Virus record (IMG/VR): IMGVR_UViG_2706794683_000014
Origin: a virus
Taxonomy: Duplodnaviria > Heunggongvirae > Uroviricota > Caudoviricetes
Length of the DNA stretch: 39,467 nucleotides
Direction: 5' to 3' (one strand)
Part shown: one piece after another, positions 4,733 through 28,918 of the stretch
Layout of the letters: each line of letters begins with the position of its first letter
How positions within the stretch are numbered: position 1 is the first letter of the stretch
Program-made: the position numbers and the translations under genes
The notes under the pieces: model-generated
The model's database searches: none
What the model was told of the DNA's origin: nothing
Seen by the model: only the letters and a program-made list of their open reading frames with translations

Positions 4733-5502
4733 CTACACACACTGCTCCTGAAAATACTGGTCATCCAGTGCAAAGATCACTGCTTCAAATTCATCGCGCT
4801 CAATCAATACCGGATGAGTGGCTAAATATTCATTTATCTCTGTCAGAGATAAAGGCAAAGGCACCCCAGCCATTCCAGCATAACGTCGGGCACGGGATAT
4901 TACCGAATAGGCGTACAACAACTCCTTAAGCACCGGGTCTATTTCTGGTTCCGGTATCGGTGGCAACCTGAGTTTTTCTCGCTTCCATCTTGCCTTTTCC
5001 CCCCTTTCTCCCCCGAACTCCGATAACCACCGCTGGGCAGCTATGGCTTTTTTATCGTATCCTGCTTCTGCTGCTCTTTACCCTGGGCGATGCTGGCTGC
5101 TTCTGCAAGGATCTGCCAGTACAACTCTGGATTCTGCTTAAGCAGCGCGATCCCTCGTTCTGCCGTATATTCCAGTGCAACCTCAACACCATTAACCAGT
5201 TCACCAACCCCTTTCCAGTCTTTCAGCAGATAACGAGCGGCATTATCAATGAGTAAATCATCAACAGAATCCACCTCGGAAACCTTTGAAATATCAAACT
5301 CCTTCGTTCCGACGTGCAAACTGGCATCCATTTTCTCAATGTGGCGACGGATTAATGCATTACGGGAGCGATACTGATCGTTATCGCTGCTTGCCACCAA
5401 CAGTTTTAACCCGTCTACAGGTTTTAAGTCCTTCATTGGCGTAAACCAGCGTTCTCCACCAATGATAATTTTCTGATTAAGAATAAACATCCATAACCTC
5501 AT
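4733..5502 (-). CDS. Tail assembly chaperone GT fusion made by programmed -1 frameshift
   Basis: Slippery heptamer A_AAA_AAG at 5047..5053 (minus strand), 2 codons before the G stop; the -1 frame is open from the slip site into the 4733..4966 ORF (…AIAAQRWLSEFGGERGEKARWKREKLRLPPIPEPE…). Confidence 0.7.
5041..5502 (-). CDS. Tail assembly chaperone G-like
   Basis: 153 aa ORF ending ...QKQDTIKKP; directly upstream of the T-like frame; the true start may be the ATG at 5490 (MFILNQ...). Confidence 0.8.
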   Translation of the reverse strand: MRLWMFILNQKIIIGGERWFTPMKDLKPVDGLKLLVASSDNDQYRSRNALIRRHIEKMDASLHVGTKEFDISKVSEVDSVDDLLIDNAARYLLKDWKGVGELVNGVEVALEYTAERGIALLKQNPELYWQILAEAASIAQGKEQQKQDTIKKP

Positions 5503-5550
5503 TCAATGCGTCCCCCTGTAGGGCAGTACCACAGGAGGAATAACGGAAAA

Positions 5551-6513
5551 TCAACTAATCGCCTCAGCACTGGCTTTTGCGATCACGGCAGCCGGGGAAT
5601 TTTTTTTTCTGGTTATCGTAGGTGCTTCATCTGCTGCGGTAATGCTCAATTGAACCTGGATAATGTCGCTATTACCCCCATCAGGCCATTCACCTGACAC
5701 CTGAACCTTCGGGAAACTGAAAGTGTATGCCCCCTCTCCATTCGAAAGCGTGAAGCTGAACGGAACTGTTTCTCCAGTCAGTGTTTTACTCCAGATTTCC
5801 CACGCGGCTTTAGACCATGAAAGCGTCACCGTACCGGACGGTGTAAAAGTAGTCGGAATATTTGCTCCTGCATAAGGCGAGCCAGTCCCGATACAACGCT
5901 GTGTCTGGAGTTTGTTATCGAACTGAATATCAAAACTGTCGATACAAAAACCGTTACCTCCGGCAACACCATTCAGGCTTACTGCTGAAACCTCCTTAAA
6001 CGAATAACGTAGCTTTCCTGCACTATCCACAGGTTCGCCTTTGATAAAATTCGTATCATCGGCCTTTGATTCCCAGTCCAGTCCGGCAAAGGTTACGGTC
6101 GCTGTAATATCGCCGTCGTTAGGGATCTGCATTTTCCATGAGCCAACCTGCGCTCCTCTGACGACAGAGGCAATTCCGACATCGGACGCATAGGTCGCCA
6201 GAGAAAATGTTATTCGCTCATTCCCCATTGTCAGAGAATCGCCTGACCATTCCGCGCCGAAACAGGATGCAAGAAAATCATCATGTTGACCCCAGCGAAA
6301 TTTGGTACCAACATCACCGCCGACATCCACAGTGCCAGGCGTCGCCCCCTGAGCCATCCGGGAGCCACCAATCTCATTATTTTCGCCTTTATTCTGGGTG
6401 GGTTTTACTCCCCAGCTTGTGCGTTTTAATAAACTCCAGTCACCACTTGCTGGCGTAGTGCCTGCAACCGTCTCCCGGATAAATGCCGAGATAACCTTTG
6501 CACCTGAACTCAC
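5551..6513 (-). CDS. Major tail protein (gpV-like)
   Basis: 320 aa ORF between the terminator-like protein and G/GT; serine/threonine/glycine-rich C-terminal region typical of an Ig-like extension. Confidence 0.8.
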   Translation of the reverse strand: MSSGAKVISAFIRETVAGTTPASGDWSLLKRTSWGVKPTQNKGENNEIGGSRMAQGATPGTVDVGGDVGTKFRWGQHDDFLASCFGAEWSGDSLTMGNERITFSLATYASDVGIASVVRGAQVGSWKMQIPNDGDITATVTFAGLDWESKADDTNFIKGEPVDSAGKLRYSFKEVSAVSLNGVAGGNGFCIDSFDIQFDNKLQTQRCIGTGSPYAGANIPTTFTPSGTVTLSWSKAAWEIWSKTLTGETVPFSFTLSNGEGAYTFSFPKVQVSGEWPDGGNSDIIQVQLSITAADEAPTITRKKNSPAAVIAKASAEAIS

Positions 6514-6539
6514 AGGAGCCTCCTATGTCATTAATTGCG

Positions 6540-6932
6540 CTAGAGCGCGCGATATGGAATTTGAAGATTAAGCTGGAACCAGCCATTCTTTTCGCCAACG
6601 GCTATTGAGGAAACAGCCTGGTAACTGAGACGATCGTCATCCTGAAACTCAAACAGTTCCCGCAATTTATCGGCTGTCTCAGTAATGAGTTTTGAACCAG
6701 AACCTGCGGGGACAAATAACTGAATAATGATTATCCCCGTGCGATAAACAACCGGCCCCGCGCCAATTTCATTAACTCCAGCCTGCCCGGGAATATTACT
6801 TAACCGCGCCCAGATTAACTTACCGGAAGGATCGAACGTTGGCCCGTTCGGATACAATACGTCTTTTCCATCAATAATCGTCTGTGCCGTCATTCTGGAA
6901 ATAACCGTATTTCTGATTTCAGTAAACTTCAT
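6540..6932 (-). CDS. Tail terminator protein (gpU position)
   Basis: 130 aa ORF immediately upstream of the major tail gene; assigned by synteny and size. Confidence 0.6.
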   Translation of the reverse strand: MKFTEIRNTVISRMTAQTIIDGKDVLYPNGPTFDPSGKLIWARLSNIPGQAGVNEIGAGPVVYRTGIIIIQLFVPAGSGSKLITETADKLRELFEFQDDDRLSYQAVSSIAVGEKNGWFQLNLQIPYRAL

Positions 6933-7309
6933 TTGTAAGCCTGTAAAACACCATGAAAAGCGTTGGCATACACGCCAGTTGGCGCTTGTTGTGAATGACC
7001 GTTTTCAAGAGCCTCTGCATAAGGAAGGTTATTCTGGATATAAATAACCCCGTAATTTGCAGCTTTCGAAATAACCCCGATCCCACGCTGAACAGCAATC
7101 GTACCGTTCGGATCCACGTTATCAGATATACCAAAATCGGGATGCTGTAACGACACCAGGTTGTTATTTCTGAAACGTCCGGTATCAACCGGAGCAGCAA
7201 TATCAATAGCAGTAAGAATCTGCATAGCGATGTAGCGAATCTTCAGCCCTACATCTTCCTCAATCATCCCGGCAAATATTGACGGTTCTATATCCCATGC
7301 CTTTGCCAT
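6929..7309 (-). CDS. Tail completion protein (HK97 gp10 / Z-like)
   Basis: 126 aa ORF with a PVDTGRFRNN motif recalled from the HK97 gp10 family; position matches. Confidence 0.6.
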   Translation of the reverse strand: MAKAWDIEPSIFAGMIEEDVGLKIRYIAMQILTAIDIAAPVDTGRFRNNNLVSLQHPDFGISDNVDPNGTIAVQRGIGVISKAANYGVIYIQNNLPYAEALENGHSQQAPTGVYANAFHGVLQAYK

Positions 7310-7693: not shown

Positions 7694-8088
7694 TATCCCC
7701 CCCTCACAACCCTGACTTGTGAGCGACTAAGTCCGTACGGTTTCAGCAGTGCTATCGCAAGCTGTAAATCGGGTTCAAGCAATGCAGTGCTGTTTGCTGG
7801 CAACTCAGAAAATGATTTCGATACACTGACCCCGTCAGCCGACACGGCTTTACTGATAACAACGCCAGAATCATTTTTCTGCTGAAACAACTTACCGAAT
7901 GAGGCAATTCTGGCTGCATATGCTCCCGCAAGTTTTACCTCTTCCGGAATACGGGATGGGTTAATTTTCAGGTTGAAGCCATTAAGCCAGGCATTAGCCA
8001 TTAAAACAGCTTTATTTTTAGCGTTCTCACTCGTCCAGGCGTTCCCAAACGCATTATCAACGTCATCACAGGTCACGTAAGTGATCAT
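7693..8088 (-). CDS. Head-tail connector / adaptor protein (putative)
   Basis: 131 aa ORF preceded by a GGAG Shine-Dalgarno; lies between the capsid gene and the joining proteins. Confidence 0.55.
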   Translation of the reverse strand: MITYVTCDDVDNAFGNAWTSENAKNKAVLMANAWLNGFNLKINPSRIPEEVKLAGAYAARIASFGKLFQQKNDSGVVISKAVSADGVSVSKSFSELPANSTALLEPDLQLAIALLKPYGLSRSQVRVVRGG

Positions 8089-8091
8089 GTG

Positions 8092-8268
8092 TTACTCCTG
8101 AGTTTTCCAGCCCATAGCCTTCCAGTTGTCAACTTCATCAGGATGAACATTAGCGATAGTTGGTGCGCCGGGAAACATCTGATAATCGGTCACCATAACC
8201 ACTAACTCAATTTGCGTTTTTTGTGCGGCTTCACGCTGTGCTCTTTGCTCTTTAGTTAATCCGGCCAT
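8092..8268 (-). CDS. Small hypothetical protein (58 aa) between capsid and connector genes
   Basis: Hand-translated MAGLTKEQRAQREAAQKTQIELVVMVTDYQMFPGAPTIANVHPDEVDNWKAMGWKTQE; tightly packed (stop at 8092, next gene starts at 8088); below the 60-aa cut-off of the ORF track. Confidence 0.35.
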   Translation of the reverse strand: MAGLTKEQRAQREAAQKTQIELVVMVTDYQMFPGAPTIANVHPDEVDNWKAMGWKTQE

Positions 8269-10150: not shown

Positions 10151-10412
10151 NNNNNNNNNNNNNNNNNNNNNNNNNNNNNNNNNNNNNNNNNNNNNNNNNN
10201 NNNNNNNNNNNNNNNNNNNNNNNNNNNNNNNNNNNNNNNNNNNNNNNNNNNNNNNNNNNNNNNNNNNNNNNNNNNNNNNNNNNNNNNNNNNNNNNNNNNN
10301 NNNNNNNNNNNNNNNNNNNNNNNNNNNNNNNNNNNNNNNNNNNNNNNNNNNNNNNNNNNNNNNNNNNNNNNNNNNNNNNNNNNNNNNNNNNNNNNNNNNN
10401 NNNNNNNNNNNN
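10151..10412. other. Masked/undetermined sequence (262 N)
   Basis: Run of n in the input; interrupts the scaffold gene 5' region. Confidence 1.
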
Positions 10413-19403: not shown

Positions 19404-19855
19404 TGCTGACCCCACAAACAGATTTCNNNNNNNNNNNNNNNNNNNNNNNNNNNNNNNNNNNNNNNNNNNNNNNNNNNNNNNNNNNNNNNNNNNNNNNNNN
19501 NNNNNNNNNNNNNNNNNNNNNNNNNNNNNNNNNNNNNNNNNNNNNNNNNNNNNNNNNNNNNNNNNNNNNNNNNNNNNNNNNNNNNNNNNNNNNNNNNNNN
19601 NNNNNNNNNNNNNNNNNNNNNNNNNNNNNNNNNNNNNNNNNNNNNNNNNNNNNNNNNNNNNNNNNNNNNNNNNNNNNNNNNNNNNNNNNNNNNNNNNNNN
19701 NNNNNNNNNNNNNNNNNNNNNNNNNNNNNNNNNNNNNNNNNNNNNNNNNNNNCCAGACCATCGTTACCACTTGGGCCAGTGATTAACACTGATGCTATAG
19801 CAATTGCTCCGCCACCAATAGCAGCAGCAACGACTTTTCGTAATGATGGAGGCAT
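19400..19855 (-). CDS. Signal-anchor-release (SAR) endolysin, phage-21 R type; interior masked by N
   Basis: N-terminus [34 protein letters not shown] and C-terminus EICLWGQQ match recalled phage 21 lysozyme; the same frame stays open across the N run. Confidence 0.75.
19427..19752. other. Masked/undetermined sequence (326 N)
   Basis: Run of n in the input, inside the endolysin gene. Confidence 1.
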
Positions 19856-22883: not shown

Positions 22884-23170
22884 AAATGACCTTTCTTTCT
22901 CCAGATTTCTTGTGTGCGAAAAACCCCTTCAGCATGCATCAGGCGCAATTCTTCTTTGGTGTAATCGCTGGTTTTTACCCGCCCGTCGATTAGATCGTGG
23001 CATGAGCTACAGGCTATCGCCGCCTGCATATCATGTGGTTTTGTCGCTGTTCCGCACGTCCCCGCCAGCCTGTAATGCGCCAGCACAGAGGTTTCGGGAT
23101 TGTGATTGCAGTAGCCAGGGATTCTGATCTGGCACATCTGGCCTTTAGCCGCTTTACGTAAATTCACCAT
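22880..23170 (-). CDS. Cysteine-rich nin-region protein (DUF1364 / YbcO-like, probably zinc-binding)
   Basis: 96 aa ORF with several spaced cysteines and histidines (C..C...C...CSSCH); position just upstream of Q; family name from memory. Confidence 0.5.
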   Translation of the reverse strand: MVNLRKAAKGQMCQIRIPGYCNHNPETSVLAHYRLAGTCGTATKPHDMQAAIACSSCHDLIDGRVKTSDYTKEELRLMHAEGVFRTQEIWRKKGHL

Positions 23171-23769
23171 TACGCAAACTCCAGTAGTTGTGCGGCCACA
23201 TTTTCAACTTCCTCCTGAGAGGAGAATTTACGGAACAGAATCCAGTTCCACAGCACATTCAGTACAGATTTATAAACCTGCTGAAACTCGACTTCGTCCA
23301 TATTCGCAAAAGCGATGGATTTTGCCCGACGCCCACGGCTACCGTCCGGATAAATATGCTCGGTGTAAAATCCGGCCTGAATGGTTACCCACTCGCGGAA
23401 AGCCTCAAACGACTTTAGCAACGCCGTATCCCGGGTTCTACGAGTCGCAACGGTGTTAAGGTATTGCTCTGCGGCATCACTCAGGGCTGGCGTGTGTTCC
23501 CGACCAACTGATTCGCACAGGTAATCAACGAAACCAGACAGCAGTTCTCGTTCGCGAGGCGTGATCGCCCCACCGACCGGAGTCCAGTAATCGAATCCCA
23601 GTTGCAGGAGTTTGAAAAAACGCTTGTGGAATGCGTAGTTACGCACACGCTTAAAGTCTGCGTGTATCCACTCACCTATTTTGATTTGATGCAGAAAATC
23701 GCAACTCTCCGGCGTCGCCGGGAGAAGTAAACCAGAAGAGGTTTGTTTGACCAGTTGTATATGCGCCAT
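23170..23769 (-). CDS. Conserved lambdoid nin-region protein (DUF1367-like)
   Basis: 199 aa ORF translationally coupled to the downstream gene; family name from memory only. Confidence 0.45.
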   Translation of the reverse strand: MAHIQLVKQTSSGLLLPATPESCDFLHQIKIGEWIHADFKRVRNYAFHKRFFKLLQLGFDYWTPVGGAITPRERELLSGFVDYLCESVGREHTPALSDAAEQYLNTVATRRTRDTALLKSFEAFREWVTIQAGFYTEHIYPDGSRGRRAKSIAFANMDEVEFQQVYKSVLNVLWNWILFRKFSSQEEVENVAAQLLEFA

Positions 23770-24049
23770 TTCTCAATCTCTCGATGGCGCAGCGCAGCAG
23801 ATGCCAGTTGTTCAGGCTGACGAATAAAGTATAAATAAACTGGCTATGGTGTAAAGCCCCACATAGCATGAACAAACACTACATATCAAATAGCTGGTAC
23901 AAGGATAGAAATACGACACTTATTATTAAAAACGATTAGATAAATTACATTTTAATGTTATGCAAAAGTTCTTTTTTATCATAACATTTCAATAAAAGCA
24001 TTACAGATGCAATCATCCCGTCATCATCAATTATTTAAGGTGGTTAAAC

Positions 24050-24136
24050 ATGGAAAATAACAAGTTCGCACATCTCGCTCCTTTTTTATCCGTAATCCTT
24101 TTCGCTTGTTGTTTTATATGGGCATTATTTTTATAA
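24050..24136 (+). CDS. Possible small hydrophobic protein (28 aa)
   Basis: AAGGTGG Shine-Dalgarno 7 nt before the ATG; MENNKFAHLAPFLSVILFACCFIWALFL is a single predicted transmembrane helix; lies in an AT-rich intergenic stretch. Confidence 0.25.
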   Translation: MENNKFAHLAPFLSVILFACCFIWALFL

Positions 24137-24527
24137 AGTAGCCACATGATAAGTTGCTGGAATCATATTTCCCACTCAAGTCATTAACATTTGATAAGAT
24201 ATATCTAAAAGGACGCCTTTACATTATTTATGCGTATATAATTTATTTATATACACAGTAAAGGTATCCTGGGAAAATATTTATCGTTAAAAAATACATC
24301 ATAAATAATTAAGCTGAAATTTCAGAACACAACTAATACACACAATAAGGTTCAGTAACAGTAATCTATGTGGACTACATCGAGATTTTTTGATTAAACT
24401 TTAATAACTTATTCCTAACACACAGAATGCATAAACTAAAAGTAAAACAAATAGTTATACGAAAAACAACCATATTTATTCTATCTTCTCCTCTAATCAA
24501 CATATCAATTATGTGTTTCATAACAGC

Positions 24528-24569
24528 TTGACATAACCCTCCAAAAGATGCATTTTTAATGCATGTTTT
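24528..24569 (+). promoter_or_regulatory. Promoter with an NsrR-like inverted-repeat operator upstream of the yeaR-like gene
   Basis: Perfect TTGACA at 24528..24533, then AAGATGCATTT-T-TAATGCATGTT (24545..24567), a 9/11-matching inverted repeat resembling the recalled NsrR consensus. Confidence 0.4.
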
Positions 24570-24582
24570 GGAGGAGGTGGTT

Positions 24583-24921
24583 ATGACACACAAGAGAATT
24601 CCTAAAGATTGGGTAATCAAACGCTCAACTCCGTTCTTCACAAAAGAGAACGTACCTTCAGCGTTATTAACACATCATAATACAGCAGCAGGTGTTTTTG
24701 GGCAGTTGTGCGTAATGGAAGGCACTGTAACATATTATGGTTTTACTGATGAGAATGCTACTGAACCGGAGATAAAAGTAGTCATTAATGCTGGCGCTTT
24801 TGCAACAAGCCCACCACAATACTGGCACCGTGTTGAACTAAGCGATGATGCTCAGTTTAATATTAACTTTTGGGTCGCTCCAGACTTTTCGGGCGAAAAA
24901 GTCTATAGCACCAAAAAATAG
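24583..24921 (+). CDS. YeaR-like protein (DUF1971 family)
   Basis: GGAGGAGG Shine-Dalgarno before the ATG at 24583; 112 aa product resembles recalled E. coli YeaR; opposite strand to the phage operons; AT-rich. Confidence 0.65.
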   Translation: MTHKRIPKDWVIKRSTPFFTKENVPSALLTHHNTAAGVFGQLCVMEGTVTYYGFTDENATEPEIKVVINAGAFATSPPQYWHRVELSDDAQFNINFWVAPDFSGEKVYSTKK

Positions 24922-24950
24922 ATGATCATATTAAAAATGCTTTAACAGTC

Positions 24951-24988
24951 AGACCCGGCAGGGCTATCCCCGACGGGTCTCATTTTTG
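24951..24988 (+). terminator. Putative intrinsic terminator after the yeaR-like gene
   Basis: GACCCG...CGGGTC stem followed by TCATTTTTG. Confidence 0.4.
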
Positions 24989-25541
24989 TAAATATATTGG
25001 TTCTACATTGACAGGAGACTTCAACCATAAGAAGTAATCTGAATACTTGAGCAATAAATTTACTTAAGATTAATGAGCGCACCTTGCCGGACAAAGATAA
25101 ACCAAGGTAACACCTTTTTTCTAGCCAGTATGTAATCAATCAGAAAGCCGCTCCATAAGAACAACAGCAAGACAATAAATTGCCATTACAGCCGCAATAG
25201 CCAGCGCACATTTGAGAACCAGCACGACAACCCCCTGTATTAGACGCACACCAGTCCTGATAAATATGAGGCTGTCTCGTCAGTGATTCAATACAACTAT
25301 TGGGTATAGTTTCTGTGATTTTATTCTGTAGAAATGGAACACAACAACCAGTCACCACCAGCACTTCCTTAAATGCTCTAAGTCAGAAACAAGCCAACAT
25401 TTTAGTCCGCTTTGAGCGATCTGCAGACATTGCTAGCAGCCTTCTGTGTGAATTCTCAGGGAGCAGGTCGGCATAGCATCACGTTGAGGCTCTTACCCTA
25501 CTTGTTCACACCAACCCTAACTCCACAGACTGATTCATAAA

Positions 25542-26543
25542 TTAGTAATCTGCGTGTTTCGCACTTTTCAGAAATGCTTTCATATTTTCATTAGGTCGCT
25601 CAATTTCGAAGTTACTTCCATATAACTCTTGTAATTTTGGCCATAACTTACTTAATAACCCTCTCCTGCGATAAAATGGATGTATCCAAACGGTAGATAG
25701 GTACGGAGAATTTGCATTTGAATTGTTTATTGTGACCAGCCCAACTAAACATTGTCGATAACCACTATTATCCATTGATTGTATTTCTTCGACGAATGGA
25801 TACGCGATTACATCAGTCCAACCATGATCGGTTGTATCCCATTGCATTCCGTCATGACATTCCTTCGACTGATAGCGGCGTAAAGCTACACACGCGAGCT
25901 TTTGCCAATCTGGAGAATTAATTGTGATCTCTTCATCGTATGACGCGCCTATTGGAGCGGGTATTGGTCTGATTAATCCAGCATGGCATTCATCATAGAA
26001 CTTCATGTTTCCCTCAGAAACGTTGTGTACGTTGGGTTGCTCCATGTGTGCGCCATTCAAAAATAGCTCTGATAGTAGTGTATCTACACTGTAATCTTTA
26101 TTGATTATTGTCGGCTTAGAGTTTTTCTTATTAAGGCCGCGAGTAACGATTTTTTGATCAATGTTAACAACATGGAATAATCCGTCGGGGAGGCTAGCGA
26201 ACCACGATGGGGCATCGGACCAGAATAGCATGCCTTTTGTACTTCTTAAGAGTTTAATTAAGTTAATACAAGCTTCTTCACTAGTCTTGCCGTTGATGCG
26301 AAGTATGTTAGGACTAAAGTAATATTCATCCATATCAGGGAATGCAGCTTCGCAAAACTCCTGTACATAATTTAGCACCTGGATTCTACAGAGATCATCA
26401 TAGCTGGTAATAACTAAGGGGGTATCTTCATTACTATTATGATTATCAATAATGCAATCTATAGCGAGACTTACTGCTTTGCGTATCACTTCAGTTGAAT
26501 CTAACGACTCTAAAAATTTTGTCTTTCGTGTGCGAATATCCAT
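25542..26543 (-). CDS. Hypothetical protein with a C-terminal GNAT acetyltransferase-like motif (cassette gene 2)
   Basis: 333 aa ORF; C-terminal ...LVGLVTINN...STVWIHPFYRRRGLLSKLWPKLQELYG resembles GNAT motif A; N-terminal ~220 aa unrecognised; AT-rich; starts 16 nt after the upstream gene stop. Confidence 0.6.
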   Translation of the reverse strand: MDIRTRKTKFLESLDSTEVIRKAVSLAIDCIIDNHNSNEDTPLVITSYDDLCRIQVLNYVQEFCEAAFPDMDEYYFSPNILRINGKTSEEACINLIKLLRSTKGMLFWSDAPSWFASLPDGLFHVVNIDQKIVTRGLNKKNSKPTIINKDYSVDTLLSELFLNGAHMEQPNVHNVSEGNMKFYDECHAGLIRPIPAPIGASYDEEITINSPDWQKLACVALRRYQSKECHDGMQWDTTDHGWTDVIAYPFVEEIQSMDNSGYRQCLVGLVTINNSNANSPYLSTVWIHPFYRRRGLLSKLWPKLQELYGSNFEIERPNENMKAFLKSAKHADY

Positions 26544-26558
26544 GTATGACCTGCGCTA

Positions 26559-27581
26559 TTAAAATTCATGAATGAACGGTTTGTCATCTGGTTGCAAAAT
26601 GGTGGTTTTATTCGTTGCTACATTTAAACTGTTGTAGAGCATAATTGCCAGGTTCGATGCATTTTCAATCAGCGTTTCAAGATCCTGGTCTGTAATCACT
26701 ACGAGGTTCCCTTCTTTATCCTTTCCACCACGATGCACTAAGTGATTTCGATTGAGGGTTGCCAATTCAATAGCTTCTATCGGACAGTCTTTTTGTACTT
26801 TTATATCGAATGTAGCTTCATAGCGGTCGATTACCTTTTTAGTGCTATGCCAGCTTGCACTGATCAAGTGTTCCTTGATTGACCTGATTAGCTCTCCCCT
26901 AATTTTCTCGATGGGTTCACCCTTGAAAGGCAACGCAGCAATATCTTTGCTTACTTTAAATTCAGTCTTACCTTTTTCTATACAATTGGCTATGTAGACA
27001 TCATCTTTCTCTATAGAATTAATGAATAGCTCAACATAAAGCGTTTCCAAAGCTGTAATAACATTCGTGTAGAGCAAACTAAGCAAGTGGTTTTTTTGCT
27101 GTTGTTCAGTTTTATCTTTTGCAAGTTTTTTTATTTTATCGATATTATCAATGAATTTTAAATACGGATTACCGGAAGACGTTACAGCGTCGTAGATATC
27201 ATCATCGTACCAATCATCTATATTATTTGAGTTTCCAGACCAGTCAAAACATTGTGTTTGTAATTCATCTACTAATTCCTCAATATACTCAGATTTAACA
27301 TATTGACCGAAGATGGATTGTAGTTCTTCGCTCGCATCATACGGCCCGCCATATATGTAAGCATAGCCACCTTCTCTACTTTCATACGGACAAGCATTTG
27401 CCGGATCTTCAAAGTTTTCAAAGAACCAGTTTTTCATTACTTCGAGTTGATCTTTTTTGCTTATGTATTTTAAAGATTTTAGTGGAACTTTCTTTCCATT
27501 AACCTCGAAAACAATTTTCACGATGTAACGCTCCCTTGTATCAATTGCGCAACTATTATACCACAGCGAAATACAGGGCAT
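26559..27581 (-). CDS. Hypothetical protein with an R-x4-H (HEPN-like) motif near the C-terminus (cassette gene 1)
   Basis: AAGGAGG Shine-Dalgarno 6 nt before the ATG at 27581 (MPCISLWYNSC...), 340 aa; C-terminal ATLNRNHLVHRGGKD contains R-x4-H; AT-rich; no recognisable phage-core homology. Confidence 0.6.
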   Translation of the reverse strand: MPCISLWYNSCAIDTRERYIVKIVFEVNGKKVPLKSLKYISKKDQLEVMKNWFFENFEDPANACPYESREGGYAYIYGGPYDASEELQSIFGQYVKSEYIEELVDELQTQCFDWSGNSNNIDDWYDDDIYDAVTSSGNPYLKFIDNIDKIKKLAKDKTEQQQKNHLLSLLYTNVITALETLYVELFINSIEKDDVYIANCIEKGKTEFKVSKDIAALPFKGEPIEKIRGELIRSIKEHLISASWHSTKKVIDRYEATFDIKVQKDCPIEAIELATLNRNHLVHRGGKDKEGNLVVITDQDLETLIENASNLAIMLYNSLNVATNKTTILQPDDKPFIHEF

Positions 27582-27796
27582 AACCTGCCTCCTTAAACTA
27601 ACATACCATGAGCCAGCAATGTCCGCTATTGGCACAAAGCGGACAACCACGCTAGCTCTCCCCTGTGCCAGAAAAATGTCAATTTACATATGAACTAATG
27701 CTCTTTGATCTAGTAACGTCTATAAATACCGAAGATTTCCTTGATAAAATGCCAGTACACGTTTCATAACTTCACTCTTCCGGCACTCGCGACAGA

Positions 27797-28156
27797 TTAT
27801 GTTCTGACGCCTGTCATAGCGGCGTATTTCTCCGTCTGGTAATGACCAGATAANNNNNNNNNNNNNNNNNNNNNNNNNNNNNNNNNNNNNNNNNNNNNNN
27901 NNNNNNNNNNNNNNNNNNNNNNNNNNNNNNNNNNNNNNNNNNNNNNNNNNNNNNNNNNNNNNNNNNNNNNNNNNNNNNNNNNNNNNNNNNNNNNNNNNNN
28001 NNNNNNNNNNNNNNNNNNNNNNNNNNNNNNNNNNNNNNNNNNNNNNNNNNNNNNNNNNNNNNNNNNNNNNNNNNNNNNNNNNNNNNNNNNNNNNNNNNNN
28101 NNNATTTTTTCACGCTCTTCCTGTGTAAAAACTTTTGCCATAAGCGCCTCCGGCAA
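27797..28156 (-). CDS. Hypothetical nin-region protein, interior masked by N
   Basis: Start overlaps the stop of the upstream gene (MPEALMAKVFTQEEREK...), C-terminus ...LSGHYQTEKYAAMTGVRT; frame continuity across the N run is assumed. Confidence 0.3.
   Translation of the reverse strand: MPEALMAKVFTQEEREKXXXXXXXXXXXXXXXXXXXXXXXXXXXXXXXXXXXXXXXXXXXXXXXXXXXXXXXXXXXXXXXXXXXXXXXXXXXXXXXXXXXXLSGHYQTEKYAAMTGVRT
27854..28103. other. Masked/undetermined sequence (250 N)
   Basis: Run of n in the input. Confidence 1.
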
Positions 28157-28918
28157 TCACTTTTCCGACACAATACGACTGGAGGAATCGACAATCTGTC
28201 GGACAATATCCCGGTGCTTGTTCAGCTCCCGCAGCGCGGCGCAGACTCGCTCCCACTTCTGGACATGATTTTTCGCCCGACGCAGTTCGCGGTTTGCCAT
28301 ATGCAGCGATGGTAAAACTAGGTCATCCGCTTGCGTTTCAGTAAACGATGGCAGCGACTGCACAATGTCCGCCACAGTTTCTGTTTTAATATCTTCCTGT
28401 GTTGCCGCTTCCTGTACTGGTAACGCAACACCGGCTGGCTGAGGAAAGGCTTTACCATCAGTTTCCGCTACCGATGCAGCTTTCGGCTCTGCTGGTAAAT
28501 TATCGCCCGGCATGCAGTAACGAAATTTACTGTTCTGGTTTACGCGAATCAGGCGTCCTTTGCTGATTGCCATTGCCAGCGTTGAAGCAACTTTGCGGGA
28601 TGTTGTACCGAACAGCGTAGCCAGTTCATCCGCCGTTTGTGGTCCGCGTTGTTCAATCGTCGCGGTTAAATCGCACTCTGAGATTTTCACTACAGTTGCC
28701 GTGGTGGTTTCTTCCGGCAGTTCTGCCTGCATTGGCTGTTCCTGCTGAACGTTGTTATCAGCCACACGCCAGGTGTACGCGCTTTTATCAACGAAACCAG
28801 CTTTTTTCAGTTCCCATAGTTCGTTCAGCACTTCTTCACGACTGATATCAAGTCGCGCAGCAAGTTCTATGGATGTGGCTTTTCCCATTGCTTTCAGTGC
28901 GTCAAAAACAGTCTCCAT
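28157..28918 (-). CDS. Hypothetical protein with N-terminal winged-helix-like domain
   Basis: GGAGG Shine-Dalgarno 8 nt before the ATG at 28918 ([43 protein letters not shown]...); downstream of the DnaC-like gene. Confidence 0.6.

Follow-up and report, generated by a model that had tools for sequence, protein, structure and literature searches.

The cassette described here lies in a stretch of 39,467 nt of tailed-phage DNA (the window) and consists of two co-directional minus-strand open reading frames, gene A and gene B (Table 1). Both were found at the coordinates given for them in an earlier note made from the sequence alone, and so were the two peptides quoted there, ATLNRNHLVHRGG in gene A and WIHPFYRRRGLLSKLW in gene B. 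The start of gene A was revised. The earlier note had read a 340-aa protein from an ATG at 27581 with a strong AAGGAGG site (27594..27588). This start is probably wrong, as the 60 nt ahead of GTG 27521 are non-coding in related loci, where in-frame stops interrupt them or the ATG is missing. The GTG is conserved in these loci together with a ribosome-binding site of the form AAGG(A/G)(G/A)G located 9 nt upstream, which is AAGGAGG in several of them. Gene A homologues are 310-320 aa long, and the 320-aa protein is used by RefSeq and by the published study discussed below alike.

Table 1 Features of the two-gene cassette (positions refer to the window)
Feature	Position	Strand	Remarks
Gene A = DS-33A	26559..27521 (stop codon included)	minus	320 aa, GTG start, RefSeq WP_014639476.1; 320/320 identity to the sequence printed in the supplement
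HEPN/RES N-terminal domain 1 of gene A (~aa 1-100)	27222..27521	minus	Pfam PF18870; presumed regulatory/sensor domain
HEPN domain of gene A, RiboL-PSP clade (~aa 120-305)	26607..27164	minus	
Catalytic R258-N-H-L-V-H263 (R-x4-H) motif of gene A	26733..26750	minus	Alignment invariance and published R258A mutant
Candidate cassette promoter TGGTATAAT, extended -10-like element	27555..27563	minus	Read from the sequence; putative
Gene A ribosome-binding site AAGGGAG, 9 nt ahead of the GTG start	27531..27537	minus	Kept in most related loci
Gene A-gene B spacer, 15 nt (A stop codon to B ATG)	26544..26558	minus	
Gene B = DS-33B family, common P289 allele	25542..26543	minus	333 aa, RefSeq WP_000354966.1; 332/333 identical to the tested DS-33B
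Divergent GNAT-fold C-terminal half of gene B (~aa 185-333)	25545..25991	minus	
P289 codon CCA of gene B, inside the invariant WIHPF of the motif-A region	25677..25679	minus	L in the tested DS-33B

The candidate promoter element TGGTATAAT is kept as TGnTA(T/C)AAT in most related loci, including those of Aeromonas. It was not reported by the consensus promoter scan because its -35 region is poor. No terminator emerged from the promoter and terminator scan, and the promoter-like sites in it were no more frequent than in shuffled controls. An Rfam search of 23000..28500 gave no match. The spacer between the genes measures 14-15 nt in nearly every locus in which both genes are matched at full length, down to 78% (gene B) and 84% (gene A) identity.

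The cassette is AT-rich, as claimed before: its GC content is 38.3%, whereas the window as a whole has 45.6% and either flank 49-50%, and only 2.4% of equal-sized windows fall below it. The low-GC island spans about 23770..27800 and is wider than the earlier note had stated. The proposed position in an accessory island between the replication genes and Q was also correct. Upstream, the neighbours are DUF1376, a DnaC-like gene, and DUF1627; downstream, they are DUF1367, YbcO, and the Q-like DUF1133. Where the cassette stretch recurs with 100% identity in an E. coli genome, the Rac genes recE, recT, ralR, kilR, and sieB are annotated around it. The prophage is Rac-like and of E. coli, and the cassette occupies an AT-rich cargo slot in it. 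Among the phages of the INPHARED collection, none carries the cassette, and only the DUF977 flank has a match.

Gene A is identical at 320 of 320 residues to DS-33A (WP_014639476.1), the accession that RefSeq gives for the identical DNA too, and gene B is identical at 332 of 333 residues to DS-33B (WP_000354965.1). By these sequence identities, the cassette is DS-33, which has already been found, tested, and named, and is not new; the label "undescribed" in the earlier note has to be dropped. DS-33 (lab code "GNAT") stems from the DefensePredictor study (DeWeirdt et al., Science 2026, 10.1126/science.adv7924; bioRxiv January 2025, 10.1101/2025.01.08.631726), the main text of which does not discuss it. 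DS-33 and the window agree in gene order and in the 15-nt spacing. The difference lies in gene B, as the tested clone has L289, whereas the window has the common P289.

The cloned DS-33 pair protected E. coli MG1655 by 2 to 6 logs against T7, T3, Bas67, and Bas26, and the system is listed as replicated (10.1126/science.adv7924). The plaque data (supplementary Table S7) comprise two replicates of spot counts, expressed as log10 protection, for the clone with the L289 allele of gene B. Wild-type DS-33 gave 3.8/2.6 for T7, 3.3/2.4 for T3, 4.0/2.0 for Bas67, and 5.0/5.9 for Bas26. With the GNAT gene deleted, the values were 4.8/4.3, 3.3/3.3, 4.0/3.3, and 5.0/4.9, respectively. Deletion of the HEPN gene left a log10 protection of -0.5 to 0.5, and the R258A mutant one of -0.3 to 0.8 (10.1126/science.adv7924). 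As these published data for the L289 clone show, protection depends on gene A and on R258, its HEPN arginine, but not on gene B. The plaque data for this near-identical clone also bear out the suggestion that the locus is an anti-phage defence cassette.

Gene A, N-terminal domain: PF18870 matches the window protein with an E-value of 1.9e-4 and 22.2 bits, against a gathering threshold of 27.4 bits. At E<=0.01, it is found in 45 of the 48 aligned homologues, mostly slightly below the cut-off. Conservation within the family is strongest in this domain, in the block WF..NFEDP...PYES.EGGY.YI.GGPY. Some proteins of Alphaproteobacteria have only the N-terminal domain in common with gene A, and a PDB sequence search with their C-terminal domains gave no match. 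One further relative carrying this N-terminal domain has a PIN domain.

Gene A, C-terminal domain: The four-helix up-and-down HEPN fold is present in this domain, and R258, H263, and R264 are invariant in the 48 sequences. PF18735 (RiboL-PSP-HEPN) does not match the window protein; 27 of the 48 homologues match it at E<=0.01 (best 7e-11), and some surpass its cut-off (28.4 bits). As the Pfam scores of the window protein fall below the curated cut-offs, the HEPN call rests on the homologues, the fold, and the mutant. No RES domain match was found in gene A, and a PDB sequence search with the family profile returned no relatives. The fold, the family, and the published loss of protection in R258A identify gene A as a HEPN protein whose R-x4-H motif is functional, in line with the motif that the earlier note had recognized.

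The same N-terminal domain is known from aRES, a validated stand-alone defence protein in which PF18870 is joined to a RES domain and which causes growth arrest on infection (Osterman et al., 10.64898/2026.01.28.702374). Like gene A, aRES is a stand-alone defence-island protein (300-600 aa) with PF18870 located N-terminal to a toxic effector. The effectors differ: it is a RES NADase making ADPR-1''-phosphate in aRES, whereas in gene A it is a HEPN domain. DARNA/PD-T7-3 and the prophage protein HepS resemble gene A, a predicted RNase, as single-protein HEPN R-x4-H RNases with a non-catalytic domain that act upon infection. HepS cleaves tRNA. DARNA cleaves the anticodon loops of tRNA. The binding partner of HepS, a product of the Gifsy-1 prophage, is a phage tail-tip protein (title of PDB 9oik). 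An identity with DARNA/PD-T7-3 was rejected, as that protein has an N-terminal HEPN and a Pds5-like domain.

According to DefensePredictor, the nearest known defence homologue of DS-33A is PD-T4-2 (10.1126/science.adv7924). The likeness lies in PD-T4-2B, which is a RiboL-PSP-type HEPN by HHpred (Vassallo et al. 2022). However, PD-T4-2 is listed as "DUF262, HEPN" with the HEPN match at about residues 7-163, and neither PF18870 nor GNAT is listed. Being a DUF262 protein plus a short HEPN protein, it was rejected as the identity of the cassette, and so was PD-T4-5, which is Abi-like. In the PADLOC check proposed in the earlier note, the models, including PD-T4-2 and PD-T4-5, gave no relevant match to either window protein at E<=1. 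With the 48 (gene A) and 42 (gene B) aligned homologues at E<=0.001, PADLOC gave one marginal PDC match per family and otherwise none. An NCBIfam search of the window proteins returned nothing useful, and PHROGs gave only two families of "unknown function", composed of these same proteins.

Gene B, fold: The AF2 model (pLDDT 89.7) shows the GNAT alpha/beta fold in the C-terminal half, preceded by an extra N-terminal half. The description of gene B as GNAT-like was therefore apt. PF00583 scores 19.9 bits on gene B against a cut-off of 20.7 bits and matches 17 of 42 homologues. In motif A (consensus Q/R-x-x-G-x-G/A), R292 is invariant and G295 is kept in 34 of 42 homologues, and all 42 aligned sequences have L, M, or I in place of G or A at the last position. 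BFVD matched the GNAT half of gene B only, and a PDB sequence search with the family profile found no relatives. The GNAT toxins TacT, AtaT, and ItaT have a single domain and a length of about 160-180 aa, and an RHH/DUF1778 antitoxin is encoded next to them. Gene B has the GNAT fold in common with these type II toxins but differs from them in its length of 333 aa, its extra N-terminal half, its off-consensus motif A, and its dispensability for the measured defence. At the locus, no small antitoxin-like partner gene lies beside gene B.

Gene B, P289: This position is P in 42 of 42 aligned homologues and in 75 of 75 fetched loci, and it is kept even in remote relatives of 160 aa that correspond to the C-terminal half. 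Searches of phages and plasmids for such 160-aa relatives mostly returned full-length gene B, and the contigs that carry these relatives are too short to show their surroundings. Exact copies of the P289 protein are encoded on at least 1000 contigs, compared with 31 for the L289 protein. Because the tested allele has L at this invariant residue, the dispensability of gene B may understate its role. The P289 protein could be an active GNAT-type enzyme that alters the cassette by restraining the HEPN domain or widening the phage range, or that has a separate target in the phage or the host. Such an activity would have escaped the published deletion test, as the cloned allele carries the change at the family-wide invariant residue. 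On balance, we regard an active P289 enzyme as unlikely.

A more specific proposal is that gene B acts as a brake on gene A, with a GNAT-type modifier or partner lowering HEPN activity or expression and limiting self-damage. The analogy is HepT/MntA (HEPN-MNT), in which a HEPN RNase also lies beside a potentially modifying enzyme. The likeness is loose, since MntA is a nucleotidyltransferase and modifies the toxin by AMPylation, whereas the cassette has no MNT domain and gene A usually occurs alone. Deletion of gene B raised the protection against T7 in both replicates (by 1.0 and 1.7 logs) and that against T3 (0.9 log) and Bas67 (1.3 logs) in one replicate each, which a brake would explain; the fixed 14-15-nt spacer and the co-inheritance of both genes across element types agree with it as well. 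However, the change for Bas26 was opposite in one replicate, and the rise, seen in two replicates of spot counts only, could be an effect of expression or of the construct. Moreover, gene A homologues are stand-alone nearly everywhere and hence need no brake. Such a role for gene B is improbable.

The two genes were followed across genomes. In 80 genome loci of gene A homologues, there is no conserved neighbour, and gene B is adjacent only where gene A is at least 98% identical. Gene B homologues of at least 73% identity are paired with gene A at the fixed 14-15-nt gap, with three exceptions, which are loci with gene B at 86% identity and no gene A; those of 62% identity or less never adjoin gene A. 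Loci with gene B alone adjoin Abi_2, AAA_13, T5orf172, a P4-type primase, or an island with TerB, BrxD-like, and helicase genes, or they lie inside an ICE. The pair itself is also present on an IncF plasmid and, beside SIR2, in a relaxase element of Aeromonas. Sequence comparison places gene A in a widespread family whose members stand alone, measure about 300 aa, and combine HEPN/RES-NTD1 with a RiboL-PSP-type HEPN domain, and gene B in a separate family that is also found alone in defence islands and mobile elements. By the same comparison, the pair arose in one Enterobacterales/Aeromonas clade, is limited to it, and moves as a 2-kb unit among prophages, IncF plasmids, and relaxase elements. 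The fixed spacer and the co-transfer of both genes would fit a functional pair too.

This distribution bears on the model of the earlier note, a working pair of nuclease and acetyltransferase. As an obligate two-component module in the style of toxin-antitoxin or abortive-infection systems, it would combine a nuclease toxin with acetyltransferase immunity, or the reverse. Although the genes are adjacent, co-directional, and co-transferred, and known toxins use both folds, each family occurs mostly alone. Gene A protects without gene B, deletion of gene A abolishes protection, and either deletion strain was viable enough for the assay. With its extra N-terminal domain and no antitoxin-like small gene nearby, gene B is also unlike the small GNAT toxins. 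The obligate module is already contradicted for the L289 allele and is very improbable overall.

The dN/dS ratio is 0.12-0.21 for gene A and 0.20-0.43 for gene B, and gene B is intact in almost all paired loci. Gene B is under purifying selection, and its reading as a decaying passenger was rejected. It might instead be an independent conflict gene, for defence or counter-defence with targets of its own, that is merely an operon-mate of gene A and was missed by the phage panel or owing to L289. The selection on gene B, the rare change at the invariant residue of the tested allele, the loci with gene B at 86% identity and no gene A, and the homologues alone in defence islands, in an ICE, and downstream of a P4-type primase would all agree with this. 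Against it, deletion of gene A abolished protection against all five re-tested phages, the PADLOC models match no member of the gene B family apart from the marginal PDC match, and the DefensePredictor score of DS-33B is low (1.08, compared with 9.45 for DS-33A; 10.1126/science.adv7924). We consider an independent gene B a minority possibility.

Genes of the DS-33A type stand alone in most bacteria, which matches the deletion data and speaks for DS-33 being essentially a one-gene system. The locus is very likely best explained as the published DS-33 carried as cargo of a Rac-like prophage, with gene A as sensor and effector and gene B as an accessory. In this published system, gene A would unite sensor and effector in a single polypeptide. 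Its N-terminal domain, the same as that ahead of the RES NADase in aRES, may hold the HEPN RNase in check in uninfected cells. Upon infection, the HEPN domain, which probably dimerizes to form a composite R-x4-H site, would cut RNA such as tRNA or mRNA. This would halt the production of phage, and the infected cell would likely stop growing. Gene B would be an accessory gene of the same operon that is maintained by purifying selection.

As DS-33 is already validated and named, the cassette cannot be counted as a new system. Beyond the published study, two points come from the sequence comparisons: the N-terminal domain of gene A is common to aRES, and the tested gene B allele is atypical at P289. 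Since DS-33A and the aRES NADases carry the same N-terminal domain, one regulatory domain appears to drive at least two kinds of effector, HEPN and RES. The PF18870 domain common to DS-33A and aRES is hence a promising place to look for the infection signal.

Both proteins of the cassette, the HEPN protein of gene A and the GNAT-like protein of gene B, are contained in the DefensePredictor paper (Science 2026, PMC13092281; bioRxiv January 2025), as found by a search of its full text and supplement. There, the anti-phage system DS-33 consists of WP_014639476.1 and WP_000354965.1 (NZ_QOWT01000046.1, 6922..8901); it has the lab code 'GNAT', bears the label 'Predicted novel defense gene', and is listed as both validated and replicated (PMC13092281). 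The gene A protein is identical to DS-33A (320/320 residues), and the gene B protein differs from DS-33B in one residue. Hence, the cassette is already known as DS-33 and is not the undescribed pair that the earlier note had proposed. In the accessible part of the main text, DS-33 is not discussed under its name, and four validated systems with HEPN domains are counted only (PMC13092281).

Log10 protection in plaque assays with DS-33 (two replicates; Table S7 of PMC13092281)
Variant	T7	T3	Bas67	Bas26	T5
Wild type	3.8/2.6	3.3/2.4	4.0/2.0	5.0/5.9	0.8/0.1
GNAT gene deleted	4.8/4.3	3.3/3.3	4.0/3.3	5.0/4.9	1.7/0.5
HEPN gene deleted	0.1/-0.3	-0.5/0	0/-0.2	0.5/0.3	0.5/0.1
R258A	0.8/0.5	-0.3/0.3	0.5/0	0.7/0.4	0.4/0.3

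The suspected defense role is borne out by these published assays, in which DS-33 tested positive. They show that defense depends on gene A and its R258, and not on gene B (L289 allele). The two-part module falls, as protection is kept upon deletion of the GNAT gene and abolished upon deletion of the HEPN gene. A role of gene B as a true partner of gene A is thus largely excluded. Gene B could instead act as a brake on gene A, in favor of which deletion of the GNAT gene raised T7 protection by 1.0 and 1.7 logs.

Features of the cassette and its surroundings
Feature	Position	Strand	Basis or remark
Gene A ORF, longest reading	26559..27650	-	ORF listing
Gene B ORF	25542..26543	-	ORF listing
Extended -10-like element TGGTATAAT	27563..27555	-	within supposed 5' extension of gene A
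DUF1971 gene	24559..24921	opposite to cassette	Pfam
Run of N (one of four, 250-326 bases each)	10151-10412
Run of N	19427-19752
Run of N	27854-28103
Run of N	37637-37886

Genes A and B, both on the minus strand, are arranged head to tail with a spacer of 15 bases from the gene A stop codon to the gene B ATG. A start of gene A at ATG 27581 (340 aa, with AAGGAGG at 27594..27588) had been proposed. This start is probably incorrect: in loci with gene A 84-97% identical, the 60 nt in question are interrupted by in-frame stops or no longer have the ATG. GTG 27521 and the ribosome-binding site 9 nt upstream of it are kept in these loci. The homologues are 310-320 aa long, and the 320-aa form, on which residues are numbered here, is used by RefSeq and by the published DS-33 study. 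The -10-like element TGGTATAAT is kept as TGnTA(T/C)AAT in most relatives and is a candidate promoter of the cassette.

Both peptides quoted in the earlier note are found in the sequence, and its domain guesses, HEPN-like for A and GNAT-like for B, were right. For gene A, this follows from the Pfam matches of its homologues and from the invariant R258 and H263; R264, E159, and W224-H225 are also invariant in the aligned sequences. PF18870 (HEPN/RES N-terminal domain 1) gives only a sub-threshold match on the window's protein (E 1.9e-4) and matches 45/48 aligned homologues; RiboL-PSP-HEPN (PF18735) matches 27/48. Two Pfam domains, PF18870 among them, are used to define aRES; these are stand-alone RES-domain NADases which occur in defense islands, protect E. 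coli, and arrest growth upon infection. DS-33A and aRES have PF18870 in common, but the effector differs, being a RES NADase in aRES and HEPN in gene A. DS-33A is the HEPN counterpart of aRES, with a common N-terminal domain and a different toxic domain. In one relative, a PIN domain takes this place. In Alphaproteobacteria (L068-L081, match at ~8001-8260), the proteins are 227-300 aa long, with one of 693 aa; only the N-terminal PF18870-like domain is common with gene A (41-51% identity), and these could be further effector swaps on this domain.

By analogy with the pattern of aRES, DARNA, and HepS, we propose that the N-terminal domain of gene A would restrain the HEPN RNase as long as no infection cue is given. 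Upon such a cue, the HEPN domain, probably as a dimer, would cut RNA, which would block phage production with growth arrest.

For gene B, PF00583 scores 19.9 bits, just short of the threshold of 20.7, and matches 17/42 homologues. Motif A is partly canonical: R292 is invariant, G295 is present in 34/42, and only L, M, or I occurs at the last position. The N-terminal half gave no convincing match by the methods applied. In an exhaustive profile search, the C-terminal half (~aa 180-330) was also found as stand-alone proteins of ~160 aa (P0207-P0220), which keep the IRP..P.G, WQ+..V..RRY, and WIHPF motifs and are not recognized by Pfam. Two E. coli proteins of 320 aa (P0147/P0148) carry gene B residues 133-331 behind a different N-terminal sequence; this could reflect a chimera or a frameshift in the gene call. 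A metagenomic gene B copy of 87% identity (L102, 2634-3632) has a TAG codon, met in the dN/dS comparison, that may be an in-frame stop of an inactivated copy.

The cloned DS-33B carries L at position 289, whereas the window encodes P289 (codon 25677-25679). P289 is invariant: it is found in 42/42 aligned homologues, whose identity is as low as 38%, as well as in 75/75 fetched loci; its equivalent is kept in the 10/10 remote ~160-aa relatives read. The exact P289 protein occurs in at least 1000 contigs, compared with 31 for the L289 protein. Hence, the dispensability of the GNAT gene was observed with an atypical, possibly impaired allele.

In a survey of gene A with one genome per species, 198 loci with relatives were found and 80 were kept. 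Gene B adjoins gene A only in two kept loci, both with gene A at least 98% identical; it is missing beside gene A at 76% (Aeromonas taiwanensis), 75% (Yersinia alsatica), and everything more distant. No recurring neighbor family was seen beside gene A among the 80 kept loci. Metagenome, viral, and looked-up contigs were surveyed for gene B. At 73% identity or more, it lies 14-15 nt downstream of gene A in nearly all complete cases, with three exceptions lacking gene A, all at 86%; at 62% or less, it never adjoins gene A. The B-only loci are conflict neighborhoods (Abi_2; AAA_13 with T5orf172; P4-type primase; ICE), one island holding TerB, a BrxD-like ATPase, a helicase, Mrr, and HEPN_Toprim_N; gene B may be an independent conflict gene. 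Judged from gene neighborhoods, the genome comparisons are consistent with a core of one gene. In the paired clade, dN/dS values of 0.12-0.21 for gene A and 0.20-0.43 for gene B point to purifying selection on both genes.

The cassette has a GC content of 38.3% vs 45.6% for the whole window and 49-50% for the flanking replication genes and Q-like module; 2.4% of equal-sized windows are lower. The low-GC island (~23770..27800) includes the DUF1971 gene. Beyond the cassette, it goes on for 1.8 kb at 36.8% GC (23770-25541), with ~800 bases without a convincing ORF, and may represent a second cargo segment. The position between the replication genes and Q was read correctly, as the Pfam neighbors (upstream DUF1376, DnaC-like ATPase, and DUF1627; downstream DUF1367, YbcO, and Q-like DUF1133) and an annotated E. 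coli copy agree. Around this 100% identical stretch, recE, recT, ralR, kilR, sieB, and ydaT are annotated, which indicates a Rac-type lambdoid prophage. The third run of N hides most of the gene directly upstream of the cassette, where the identical stretch has a DUF977 gene; ORFs listed at 27797..28206 are artefacts of this mask. In related prophages, DUF977 is directly followed by other cargo, so the site is variable; in two other E. coli lambdoid prophages (L157, L158), the DS-33 slot is taken by different hypothetical genes on the opposite strand (269 aa and 314 aa). From such sequence comparisons, the slot downstream of DUF977 behaves as a variable cargo site.

Full-length copies of the pair in Rac-like prophages occur in 205/5426 complete E. 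coli genomes. Identical genes are on the conjugative IncF plasmid NZ_CP069974.1 of E. coli (3453-5432), flanked by relB, IS26, and ISKpn19 with erm(B) near, and megablast found five plasmid copies in E. coli. In Aeromonas caviae (L084-L086, ~5026-6993), the pair is present at 86% (A) and 79% (B) with an unchanged spacer, inside a relaxase-encoding element beside SIR2 and cREC_REC genes, which are likely another defense pair. In NZ_CP084096.1 and NZ_CP073936.1, the match to a 2.35-kb query (cassette and flanks) is broken into 2-3 pieces, with a transposase of the IS2 or ISSen4 family annotated within. The remaining interest in DS-33 lies in the intact P289 GNAT allele and in the N-terminal domain common to aRES.
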